64,000 nucleotides of DNA from an uncultured Bacilli bacterium (lineage in GTDB: Bacteria > Bacillota_I > Bacilli_A > RF39 > UBA660), in assembly GCA_934149325.1 (NCBI GenBank), contig CAKPEJ010000002.1, positions 10,194-74,193 of the forward strand, in the 5' to 3' direction. The position numbers were made by a program, and so were the translations under genes. A model generated the notes under the pieces. The model had not been told where the DNA came from. It searched no databases and saw only the letters and a list, made by a program, of their open reading frames with translations. Below are positions 38,816 through 41,024 of this stretch, piece by piece (positions within the stretch are counted from its first letter, which is position 1; every line of letters starts with the position of its first letter).

Positions 38816-39457
38816 TTATATTAAAAATTCATCATTAATATCATTATGATAATGATATTTTTTTACATTTTGTTTTAAGTAGGTATTTTTGTACCATTCA
38901 GCGAATAACTCAGTTGCCGATGTATGTCCATCTTTTCTATTTTTTCTTTCTTCATCAGTCATTTCTGCTAAAGTTTTGGTACAATTAGTTGGTATAAATA
39001 CATACCAAAGATTAGATTTTGCTCTTTTAATCGAATCTCCTTTTTTACTAAATGCTAAGGTTCCACTACTTACTCCATAAAAGGTATAAAATTCATTACC
39101 ATCATAAAAAGTTAAACAATCAACAAATTTACAGGTTCTATTACTTTGGTTTTTCATTGTTTCAAGTAATTCATCTATATTTGAACTAATTCCACTTCTT
39201 TTAACAAATGCTCCAGGATATCCTGGATTATTAGGATAATCATCTATATAAAATCCTGTATCAGCTACAAAACAAGGTGTTTGTAAAATTTTGTATGCAT
39301 CTAATGCTTTTTTTCTTGATATTTTTTCAATGTCATTTATTTCAATTTCTTCAAAATCATATTTATAAAAATCTATTTCTATATTTTTTTCTGCAAAACA
39401 TTCCTTGACTGAAACATATTTGCCATAATTTCCAGTTACATAAATTATATTTTTCAT
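38816..39457 (-). CDS. Ham1/ITPase-family (non-canonical NTP pyrophosphatase-like) protein, divergent
   Basis: Aligns with RdgB/ITPA motifs: VTGNYGK (ATGNxGK), ADTGFYIDD...PGYPGAFVKR (DSGL.VD...PGVYSAR), LLETMKN (identical to RdgB LLETMKD block), C-terminal DGHTSA (SHRG). Confidence 0.6.
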   Translation of the reverse strand: MKNIIYVTGNYGKYVSVKECFAEKNIEIDFYKYDFEEIEINDIEKISRKKALDAYKILQTPCFVADTGFYIDDYPNNPGYPGAFVKRSGISSNIDELLETMKNQSNRTCKFVDCLTFYDGNEFYTFYGVSSGTLAFSKKGDSIKRAKSNLWYVFIPTNCTKTLAEMTDEERKNRKDGHTSATELFAEWYKNTYLKQNVKKYHYHNDINDEFLI

Positions 39458-39458
39458 T

Positions 39459-40490
39459 TTACATCTCTCCTCTAAAATTATATAGTTTTTTTATCAATTT
39501 TGGATCATATTCCGGTTGCGTTAAATTAATATTTTTATCATCAGCAATTTTCTTAGATAAAAAGTACATTTGCAATATAAGATAATATTCCTTCCAAAAA
39601 TAATCTTCATTTATATCTTCTGTATCAAAAATAGATATATTAGAATATTCCTTGCTTATTGATTCGATTAGCATATTATCTAATTCTTTTCTTTGATGAT
39701 ACAAATAGATAATATGACTATCTGGATACTGAAATAACAGGTTACTTCTTCCATGACAAAATGAACCTTTATCATGGATAACTGTTGAGGCTAATCCAGT
39801 TTCTACTAAATTTGATTCTAAAACACAACTTGATGCCTTTGTTTCATATCCACTCATTATTTGAATTAAAGATACATTTTTAAAATCTGATGATAATTTA
39901 TCTATTTTCTCTCTACTTTTATTTAATAATTGTTTTATCTTATCATTTATTTTTTTTACCTCACTAGAACTTATCTCCATATTTAATGAAGCTGTTACAT
40001 CAAGTATTAATGTTATTGGACCTAAACTAGATGCTAGCGAAATAAAACTCTTTTCAGTTTCATATTTTACATTACCCCAAGAAATGACTTGGTAATTGCT
40101 TTCATGATTATCTTGAGTAACTAAAATTTTATTACCATTAAAAGCTTCTAATGTTTCTTTAATTCCATTTGTGCTTCCACTCGTAGATATTGCTATTAAA
40201 TTTGAAAACTGATTTCTATTAGCTTTGTAAAAATAATCTCTTGGTTCTATTACCTCACAAATAATCCCATCAATTTCTAATCTTTCTATAACCAATTGTA
40301 AATAATATGCAACAACTTTTGAGCCTCCTGTTGCCACTATTAATGTTGGCTTATTATTAATTGTTAATTGATATAACATTTCTCTAATACCATTAGATTT
40401 ATTTAATATTGGATCATTTATACTTAATATTCTTTCTTTCAACTTTGAAAAGTTTATTTGTGTTGTTTCTGTATGTGTATGTTTAATCAT
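39459..40490 (-). CDS. SIS-domain-like protein with unknown C-terminal domain (343 aa)
   Basis: LIVATGGSKVVAYYL ... IAISTSGSTNGIKETLEAF resembles the SIS phosphosugar-binding fold. C-terminal 170 aa unrecognised. Confidence 0.45.
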   Translation of the reverse strand: MIKHTHTETTQINFSKLKERILSINDPILNKSNGIREMLYQLTINNKPTLIVATGGSKVVAYYLQLVIERLEIDGIICEVIEPRDYFYKANRNQFSNLIAISTSGSTNGIKETLEAFNGNKILVTQDNHESNYQVISWGNVKYETEKSFISLASSLGPITLILDVTASLNMEISSSEVKKINDKIKQLLNKSREKIDKLSSDFKNVSLIQIMSGYETKASSCVLESNLVETGLASTVIHDKGSFCHGRSNLLFQYPDSHIIYLYHQRKELDNMLIESISKEYSNISIFDTEDINEDYFWKEYYLILQMYFLSKKIADDKNINLTQPEYDPKLIKKLYNFRGEM

Positions 40491-40544
40491 TATAAAATCT
40501 CCTTCTTTAATTAAATCATAACAAAGAAAGAGGTAATATATATG

Positions 40545-41024
40545 TCAGTTATAAAATTTTTCTAATAATTCAATAGATTTTATTCTATTTATATAAAAGT
40601 GTCTTATTTCTTCTTTTAATTCACAATAAGCTGCAACTCCCCATTCATTACCTAAAAGAATTAAGTCATATGGGTGAATAGTTCTTTTTGAAAAAATTTT
40701 TTCATTTTTAGAATAATACTCTATTAAACACTTTCTTTTTTCTTTAATCGCTCTATTTATTAAATTAAATAAATTTTTGTTTTTTATATTTATTTCATTT
40801 GGTGTTATAAATCTTTTTGGAACATTTATATTTTGATTTAAAACATATCCACCATAAGGTCCTTTTATAGTATCAATATAAATACCAGCCTTTTCTATTT
40901 CATCTTTATATACTCTAATCATCCTAGGAGTAACTTCTAACTTTTCAGACAATTCAGCAATACTATATTTTCTACCTGTGCTTAAATATTCAATCATGGT
41001 AAGCACATTACTAATTTTAGACAT
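40545..41024 (-). CDS. Short HTH-WYL transcriptional regulator
   Basis: N-terminal DeoR/YafY-type HTH (ISNVLTMIEYLSTGRKYSIAELSEKLEVTPRMIRVY). C-terminal WYL-like segment (RTIHPYDLILLGNEWGVAAYCEL...RHFYINRIKSIE). Confidence 0.7.
   Translation of the reverse strand: MSKISNVLTMIEYLSTGRKYSIAELSEKLEVTPRMIRVYKDEIEKAGIYIDTIKGPYGGYVLNQNINVPKRFITPNEINIKNKNLFNLINRAIKEKRKCLIEYYSKNEKIFSKRTIHPYDLILLGNEWGVAAYCELKEEIRHFYINRIKSIELLEKFYN

Follow-up and report, generated by a model that had tools for sequence, protein, structure and literature searches.

A mobile WYL-SIS2-Ham1 operon of uncultured gut Bacilli as a candidate two-enzyme cassette directed at non-canonical nucleotides

In a stretch of 64,000 nucleotides from an uncultured Bacilli bacterium (GenBank contig CAKPEJ010000002.1, positions 10,194 to 74,193; hereafter the window, with a base composition of about 25% G+C), three adjacent minus-strand genes encode, in this order, a helix-turn-helix (HTH) regulator with a WYL domain, a double-SIS protein named here SIS2, and a protein of the Ham1/ITPase (inosine triphosphatase) family. 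Together they are tentatively read, with a confidence that stays just short of even, as a self-contained, inducible and mobile operon whose regulator accompanies two enzymes that jointly break down a non-canonical nucleotide. The components come from known families, but neither their architecture nor the SIS2 family nor this Ham1 subfamily has been characterised, and no description of this gene combination was found in the searchable literature or in PADLOC. An earlier note on this DNA, made from the letters alone, had proposed a WYL-regulated trio, bounded by terminators and lying in an island, as a nucleotide-targeting defence module. The three co-directional open reading frames (ORFs), the HTH-WYL and Ham1 assignments, the terminators at both ends and the island setting all stand, as does the view that a SIS-ITPase pairing is no housekeeping arrangement, and a nucleotide-directed function is likely; the defence module, on the other hand, has found no direct support.

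The Ham1-like protein matches the Pfam family Ham1p_like (PF01725; 2.4e-23), with positions 1-185 of the 186 in the profile covered, and its sequence matches in the PDB comprise ITPases (7.6e-14 to 8.8e-12, with PH1917 at 7.6e-14) and KomB (6.9e-11); it falls far short of all the NCBIfam equivalog cut-offs (92 vs 203 bits). The motif blocks pointed out in the earlier note are present, namely TGNYGK (residues 8-13), ADTG (residues 65-68), PGYPGAFVKR (residues 78-87) and LLETMK (residues 97-102), and mapping of the catalytic residues, which had been proposed as a check, delineates the set N10, K13, E37, K50, D66 and R87. These residues are invariant in 16 diverse orthologues, occupy columns where the consensus residue is found in at least 90% of a set of 64 orthologues, and are also conserved in the distant locus L090 and in the natural fusion P0150. 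Presumably the set corresponds to that of RdgB (K13, E41, K53, D69 and R87), the RdgB and ITPA reference sequences having been cross-checked by residue numbering only. In the alignment, the numbering of the RdgB sequence agrees with Lys13, Lys53 and Arg87 as quoted for this enzyme (PMC3899018). As for the base pocket, the FG(Y/W)DP block of ITPases is replaced by S148-x-L150-W151-x-x-F154-x-P156 and the SHR(G) block by T-S-A-T (T179-S180-A181), S148, L150, W151, F154, P156, F185, W188 and Y189 being family-specific invariant residues, and the deaminated-purine pocket motifs expected for ITP/XTP specificity are missing. The protein is apparently a catalytically competent pyrophosphatase, and more precisely it would act on a nucleoside triphosphate (NTP) through a base pocket that differs from that of ITPases, as a member of an uncharacterised subfamily. 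Compared with the house-cleaning ITPases (E. coli RdgB, human ITPA, PH1917 and Mj0226), it belongs to the same fold family and keeps the triphosphate/Mg/catalytic-Asp set, but lacks the FGxDP and SHR pocket motifs, carries an Ala where the ED(S/T)G motif opens with an acid and sits in a mobile WYL operon with a SIS enzyme, whereas those ITPases are stand-alone core genes.

Regarding the 343-residue protein, the SIS-type N-terminal domain announced in the earlier note holds, but the C-terminal half, then considered of unknown nature, is a second SIS domain, and it bears the catalytic Glu/His pair. The window protein has no Pfam match and its best NCBIfam match, of SIS type, is weak (20.7 bits vs a cut-off of 213.9). 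Among 1.84 billion cluster representatives searched, 210 clusters belonged to the family. In the PDB, a 60-sequence profile matched 2aml (8e-7) and a FrlB-like protein (8e-5) as well as AgaS-like proteins and GlmS, and both halves are covered when it is aligned to double-SIS proteins. With the AlphaFold2 model (pLDDT 93.7, pTM 0.93), the top 50 Foldseek matches are double-SIS enzymes only (E 5e-14 to 6e-9, TM 0.54-0.74), among which 2aml (Lmo0035), 3eua, 8glr, 1moq, 8fdb and 9ou6, including FrlB, NagB-II, the isomerase domain of GlmS and FraB; SIS2 shares 13-17% sequence identity with solved structures. Across the 60 sequences and in every fusion form, E230 and H246 show no variation and are spaced by exactly 16 residues, and a Glu/His pair 16 residues apart is the hallmark of the active site in GlmS (E488/H504) and FrlB (E224/H240) (PMC10285752). 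The phosphate-loop residues S57, S102, S104 and G105, counterparts of S46, S91, S93 and G94 in FrlB, are conserved as well, and a family signature (R20, E146-x-S/G-F149, H239-x-K241, (C/S)-H246-G-R248 and Y337) is kept in all the architectures described below. The two-SIS fold, the Glu/His dyad, the Ser/Thr phosphate loop and a C-terminal DxxQPE-type tail bring SIS2 close to the GlmS isomerase domain, NagB-II, FrlB, FraB and AgaS; the low identity, the signature of its own, the lack of a glutaminase domain, the lack of a transporter in the cassette and the Ham1 or PfkB partner under a WYL regulator set it apart. No orthology to any characterised double-SIS member was found by comparison with Pfam, NCBIfam and solved structures, and SIS2 is probably a new, catalytically active family within the GlmS/FrlB superfamily. 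The refuting condition set in the earlier note has a mixed outcome: the trio does not occupy a conserved core-genome position, which speaks against refutation, and SIS2 does fall within the sugar-phosphate isomerase/deglycase superfamily, though only as a distant new family.

The association of the two enzymes goes well beyond the window. A scan of GTDB genomes (one genome per species), built from a 20-sequence SIS2 alignment, uncovered SIS2 relatives in 238 genomes, nearly all of them metagenome-assembled genomes (MAGs) of uncultured animal-gut "Bacilli bacterium". Composition and neighbour counts were drawn from 80 retrieved loci, numbered here with the prefix L, in which ORF calling was heuristic; many of these loci are MAGs, and labels such as Muribaculaceae or Saccharibacteria are probably mis-binned. 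The order WYL-SIS2-Ham1 is the rule, with WYL present in 66/69 assessable loci, Ham1 in 62/74 and the full trio in 53/64. Where Ham1 is missing, the genes found in its place have no Pfam match or encode unrelated proteins such as an S41 peptidase or GH10-PHP, and no alternative third component appeared in those loci. Besides, natural fusions exist both as Ham1(N)-SIS2 (P0150 and P0186) and as PfkB-kinase(N)-SIS2, the SIS2 signature being kept in each; the PfkB domains give weak and generic matches only (ribose-1-phosphate kinase, ribokinase and fructokinase). A further architecture has SIS2 with an N-terminal extension of about 110 residues and no assigned domain. HTH-WYL lies directly ahead of a Ham1-SIS2 fusion (L088), of a PfkB-SIS2 fusion (L089) and of distant unfused operons (L090 and L092), and is found upstream in every architecture whose upstream region was readable; WYL and SIS2 thus form the invariant core, to which either Ham1 or a kinase is added as a third module. 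The 1-nt gap between the SIS2 stop and the Ham1-like start, the natural fusions, the shared WYL regulator and the co-occurrence counts suggest that the two enzymes are functionally coupled. Of note, an extra domain of some 100-110 residues with no Pfam match is seen at the C-terminus of Ham1 in L059/L060 and at the N-terminus of SIS2 in P0142/P0143/P0174, and the two versions show a weak similarity (blastp E 5e-4 against a very small database).

The WYL protein comprises the Pfam domains HTH_11 (residues 8-60, 3.7e-7) and WYL (residues 85-152, 1.9e-16), and matches a PADLOC WYL model at 9.2e-29; its sequence matches in the PDB are PafC (5e-7), the WYL protein 7tb5 (4.7e-6), BrxR (3e-3) and CapW (0.11). 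As in PafBC, DriD, BrxR and CapW, an HTH and a WYL domain are combined in a protein whose gene opens, or lies directly ahead of, the operon presumably under its control. Unlike these factors, it has no WCX dimerisation/extension domain, as it ends 7 residues past the WYL domain (159 residues vs about 290-320 for PafC, BrxR and CapW), and the genes placed under it are two metabolic-type enzymes. WYL regulators of the PafBC, DriD, BrxR and CapW type respond to nucleic-acid or infection signals, and by analogy inducible expression of the operon is therefore expected.

The features of the operon and its surroundings are collected in Table 1. The 54-nt spacer between the WYL and SIS2 genes contains a ribosome-binding site (GAAGGAGA), and -10 boxes of the TGnTATAAT type are found again upstream of WYL in many orthologous loci. 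The inverted repeat 41076-41068 / 41048-41041, which surrounds the -10 box and was considered as a candidate operator, is not conserved even in L007, and no operator is therefore claimed. The hairpin at the upstream edge is nearly identical in L007 and L019, although the DNA further upstream is unrelated there. Five terminator-like sites were found vs 0.4 expected, and scans of the window for tRNA genes and Rfam families returned nothing.

Table 1. Coordinates of the cassette, its signals and other features of the window (positions are those of the window)
Feature	Position	Strand	Description and basis
Transferable cassette	38759..41119	minus	Spans hairpin, promoter and three genes; blastn block to L007
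Upstream-edge hairpin, terminator-like element	41113-41091	minus	10-bp stem AAGTCAGTAA/TTACTGACTT, then T-run TTATTTT
Operon promoter and ribosome-binding site region	41029..41077	minus	Read from sequence
Weak -35 box	41077-41072	minus	CTATCA; predicted promoter of the operon
Extended -10 box	41057-41049	minus	TGTTATAAT; predicted promoter of the operon
Ribosome-binding site of WYL gene	ATG at 41024	minus	GGTGGTGA ahead of the ATG; sequence reading
HTH-WYL regulator gene	40545..41024	minus	159 aa; ORF and Pfam
SIS2 gene	39459..40490	minus	343 aa; ORF
Ham1-like gene	38816..39457	minus	213 aa; ORF and Pfam
Intrinsic terminator closing the operon	38728-38696	minus	15-bp stem, then TTTTTTATT; about 85 nt past the Ham1-like stop
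HAD-superfamily phosphatase gene (IIIC-like, weak match)	37984-38499	minus	171 aa; directly downstream of the cassette, own promoter/-10 box
prfB	35290..36249	minus	Main ORF in +1 frame
prfB programmed frameshift	36297-36368	minus	ATG at 36368
Decayed genes beside the cassette	41158-41382, 42502-42843		RhuM C-terminal fragment of 74 aa (profile positions 201-248 of 252); two short GNAT-like fragments
DinD homologue, full-length	41583-42416	minus	NCBIfam 2.5e-99; Bro-N domain; PADLOC candidate PDC-S13
42-nt direct repeats	43186-43227, 43973-44014, 44692-44733, secA end 45822-45863	minus (coding)	88-98% mutually identical
secA	45822..48326		
Giant protein gene	901-15099	minus	4732 aa
uvrA	15141-17972		Adjoins the giant protein gene
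T4SS-pilin and CHAP protein gene	50647-51885		412 aa

As a mechanism for the destruction of a non-canonical nucleotide, it can be envisaged that HTH-WYL would control transcription from the extended -10 promoter in answer to nucleic-acid or nucleotide stress, in the manner of PafBC, BrxR and CapW-type factors. The Ham1-like enzyme, whose competence is suggested by its invariant residues, would then cleave an unusual (d)NTP other than ITP/XTP into a monophosphate and pyrophosphate, through a base pocket that appears rebuilt and rich in aromatic residues next to a seemingly intact phosphate/Mg/catalytic-Asp site. Translationally coupled to it, SIS2 would use Glu230/His246 to open the phosphosugar part of the product and to isomerise or deglycate it, making the monophosphate impossible to re-phosphorylate. 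Since PfkB-SIS2 fusions replace Ham1 in sister operons, the shared input of SIS2 would be a 5'-monophosphorylated compound, obtained from the triphosphate via Ham1 or from the unphosphorylated form via the PfkB kinase. Such a logic with two suppliers would parallel PsuK/PsuG and FrlD/FrlB: in the pairs of a kinase and a phosphosugar-cleaving enzyme (FrlD/FrlB, FraD/FraB and PsuK/PsuG), the kinase makes the substrate of the second enzyme and the PfkB-SIS2 fusions show the same layout, but the supplier in the window is a pyrophosphatase acting on a triphosphate and SIS2 is unrelated to PsuG. The physiological role would be an inducible house-cleaning of modified or damaged nucleotides, in small-genome gut Bacilli for which nucleotide salvage may be important, and its benefit may lie in genome integrity or in interference with phages. 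Since the cassette includes no transporter, an endogenous substrate is favoured. Likewise counted for nucleotide hygiene are the recurring neighbours of the cassette, that is, NUDIX proteins, which are the commonest immediate neighbours (7/137 adjacent ORFs), dCMP deaminase, HAD phosphatases, a protein of the Exo/endo/phosphatase family, Fpg, DinD and proteins with the helical domain of 5-hmdU DNA kinases (PF18723, E ~1e-104), the latter lying no more than two genes from the cassette in 4/80 loci (L031, L036, L043 and L051). Examples of these kinase-like genes are L036:5934-6887 and L051:9042-9977, and the SIS2 of L051 stands alone beside one of them.

Several points weigh against the proposal that the cassette disposes of a non-canonical nucleotide. 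To our knowledge, no SIS-family enzyme acts on a nucleotide, the substrates of known SIS relatives being Amadori compounds and the free phosphates of hexoses or hexosamines. Ham1 is absent from 12/74 loci, and in most Ham1-like orthologues Ala65 stands in place of the leading acid of ED(S/T)G (D68 in RdgB), which could lower the activity. WYL is 85-92% identical across many lineages vs about 50-73% for SIS2, which is unusual for a metabolic operon (in L041, L043, L046 and L050, for instance, WYL is 85-92% identical and SIS2 about 52%). Finally, being mobile, mosaic and occasionally pseudogenised, the cassette resembles conflict genes more than hygiene genes. Read more broadly, the WYL-SIS2-Ham1 operon and its PfkB-SIS2 sister might make up an unrecognised nucleotide-centred system in which a GlmS/FrlB-type enzyme acts on a nucleotide-derived substrate, a proposal rated as rather unlikely; its variants could be that modified nucleotides, phage-specific or salvaged, are destroyed once Ham1 has cleaved them, or that glycated nucleotides are repaired.

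The mobility of the cassette is itself well marked, as its synonymous divergence (dS) is far below that of secA, its flanks are unconserved and it has recombined internally. Between the window and L007, L008 and L009, the protein identity is 92% for WYL, 88-92% for Ham1 and 79-82% for SIS2, whereas the neighbouring SecA (present in L007, L009 and L011) is merely 67-68% identical to that of the window. At the nucleotide level, the cassette and L007 form a single blastn block (2362 nt, 88.6% identity) that takes in the non-coding leader with hairpin and promoter, vs about 73% over some 200 nt only for secA; dS with L007 amounts to 0.41-0.49 for the three cassette genes vs 1.08 for secA, the latter value being near saturation. 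In L019, dS is 0.44 for Ham1 but 0.93-0.95 for WYL and SIS2, and this mosaic indicates recombination inside the cassette. All three genes have a ratio of nonsynonymous to synonymous divergence (omega) of 0.09-0.26 and are thus under purifying selection, which, along with orthologues in the 238 species genomes, establishes them as real genes. The flanks are highly variable, the 512 flanking ORFs falling into 373 clusters with the commonest family in 10/80 loci; mobile-element neighbours include RhuM, large serine recombinases (6 loci) and Mob_Pre (2 loci), and Ser_hydrolase and DUF1848 complete the recurring families. In L034 and L035, the 3' end of a tRNA gene (…GGTTCGAATCC…CCA), a typical site of island insertion, lies about 90 nt upstream of WYL. 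Split or frameshifted copies were encountered for Ham1 (L001, L003, L018 and L077, of which L001 and L003 carry a SIS2 100% identical to that of the window), SIS2 (L038, L054, L071 and L076) and WYL (L054 and L078), and reflect either pseudogenisation or homopolymer/MAG assembly errors.

In the window, the cassette lies in some 9.5 kb between secA and prfB, together with gene fragments and repeated secA 3' ends. The 42-nt repeats encode the SEC-C zinc-motif tail of SecA (CGSGRKYKQCCGK, up to the stop codon) and duplicate the secA 3' end three times over within the island; in L007, the same repeat occurs at the end of secA and immediately upstream of the cassette (5944-5987 and 7305-7349). This arrangement suggests serial integration or accretion of islands at the 3' end of secA. 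DinD is also found directly upstream of WYL in L041, L046 and L076. As for the decayed genes, the GNAT reading of the two short fragments was made by eye, Pfam giving no match. The downstream HAD-like gene is kept beside the cassette only in contigs with an identical SIS2 (L001-L005) and is not conserved there in other species; it could be a species-specific add-on, e.g. a nucleotidase.

Among the rival explanations, the one that survives best is an anti-phage nucleotide interference, which is possible but unproven and, in probability, remains on the unlikely side. The enzymology would be the same, but the target would be a phage-specific pool of non-canonical (d)NTPs, e.g. hypermodified pyrimidine or purine precursors: on infection WYL would de-repress the operon, and Ham1 and SIS2 would irreversibly destroy the precursor, starving phage DNA synthesis while the cell survives. 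Defence operons are headed by HTH-WYL regulators of the BrxR/CapW type, and the regulator of the window matches the PADLOC WYL models (9e-29), but the SIS2 and Ham1-like proteins have no PADLOC match and no toxic effector domain is encoded. The variable island, with DinD (PDC-S13) and a RhuM fragment (PDC-S05) nearby and one or the other recurring in other loci, the serine recombinases, Mob_Pre genes and tRNA ends flanking some copies, the horizontal transfer, intra-cassette recombination and scattered pseudogenes, the four loci with 5-hmdU DNA kinase-like genes and the fast evolution of SIS2 relative to WYL would all suit a conflict system, even though omega shows no diversifying selection. 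The neighbours in the 80 loci are heterogeneous and for the most part other than canonical defence genes, some loci lying among cell-wall or cell-division genes (L090). The recurrent PADLOC matches among the 137 adjacent ORFs (raw counts) are mostly non-canonical, namely HTH proteins and the candidates PDC-S07 (NUDIX-like, seven times), PDC-S05 (RhuM) and PDC-S13 (DinD), and no canonical defence system recurs there, neither restriction-modification nor CBASS nor similar. In addition, SIS2 relatives were detected in none of 50,697 phage records and 72,556 plasmids (tblastn) nor in IMG/VR (pattern scan), while a fold search of BFVD with SIS2 gave giant-virus GlmS only and nothing from bacteriophages.

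It is less probable still, and indeed improbable, that the cassette serves deglycation or catabolism, with SIS2 as a FrlB/FraB/NagB-II-like deglycase or deaminase of a 6-phospho-ketosamine, the PfkB-fused forms as kinase-deglycase fusions, and Ham1 as an add-on, e.g. for a glycated nucleotide. The best structural and profile matches of SIS2 (FrlB, FraB, NagB-II and the GlmS isomerase domain) and its conserved Glu/His dyad and phosphate loop speak for such a chemistry, but at 13-17% identity to characterised deglycases; similarly, the PfkB-SIS2 fusions mirror FrlD+FrlB and FraD+FraB, but through weak and generic PfkB matches. Gut-bacterial hosts do meet dietary Amadori products; the cassette, however, includes no transporter or permease, and its regulator is of WYL type where sugar operons usually have one of RpiR, GntR or LacI type. 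Sugar catabolism also leaves unexplained that the commonest partner of SIS2 is a nucleotide pyrophosphatase, sometimes fused to it.

Very improbable, lastly, is a Kongming-like sensor-effector, in which the Ham1-like protein would bind rather than hydrolyse an alarm nucleotide such as dITP and activate SIS2 by allostery; the depletion of an essential phosphosugar by SIS2 (e.g. fructose 6-phosphate or glucosamine 6-phosphate) would then lead to abortive infection. Kongming associates a dITP-sensing, inactive Ham1 protein (KomB) with a SIR2 NADase (KomC), and the likeness lies in a Ham1 protein tightly linked and occasionally fused to its partner, in horizontal spread and in KomB being among the best solved-structure sequence matches (6.9e-11); the remodelled base pocket of the Ham1-like protein is a further point for this reading. 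According to the study describing it, defensive Ham1 proteins 'invariably' have a His for the catalytic Asp and are always paired with the SIR2 protein KomC (10.1101/2024.12.20.629578). In the window, E64-H65-T66 of KomB aligns to A65-D66-T67, so that His65 faces Asp66, which is invariant; the partner is a double-SIS protein, a KomC-like SIR2 being ruled out by the Foldseek result and the lack of a Pfam SIR2 match; the operon has an HTH-WYL regulator but neither the adenosine deaminase KomA nor another signal generator; and the replacement of Ham1 by an active PfkB kinase, seen in the fusions, fits a supplier of substrate better than a sensor. The cassette thus has none of the tested defining features of Kongming, the only defensive Ham1 system known.

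Elsewhere in the window, prfB, encoding release factor 2, displays the classic programmed +1 frameshift ('...TGG AGG TTA CTT TGA T'), which indicates genetic code 11. The giant 4732-residue protein contains at least 16 Listeria-Bacteroides repeat domains and is taken as a surface protein; its gene adjoins that of UvrA. A 412-residue protein with T4SS-pilin and CHAP domains is encoded farther on.

Ham1/ITPase enzymes have long been regarded purely as stand-alone house-cleaning enzymes. With Kongming, Ham1 appeared recruited to immunity as a dead sensor, and the cassette described here amounts to a third arrangement, in which an apparently active Ham1 with a rebuilt pocket is coupled, or fused, to an apparently active GlmS/FrlB-like enzyme, placed under WYL regulation and moved between species. 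If its substrate is indeed a modified nucleotide, the cassette would provide a new two-step disposal route and a new type of reaction for the SIS superfamily; with a nucleotide-derived substrate, no SIS enzyme before SIS2 would have had a part in nucleotide sanitation or immunity, and the operon would add to Kongming a second way, different in mechanism, of using Ham1 in conflict or repair. Should it protect against phages, a new non-abortive principle of defence would emerge. With three small genes, mutable catalytic residues and natural fusions, the cassette is a tractable entry point to the biology of the uncultured small-genome gut Bacilli.

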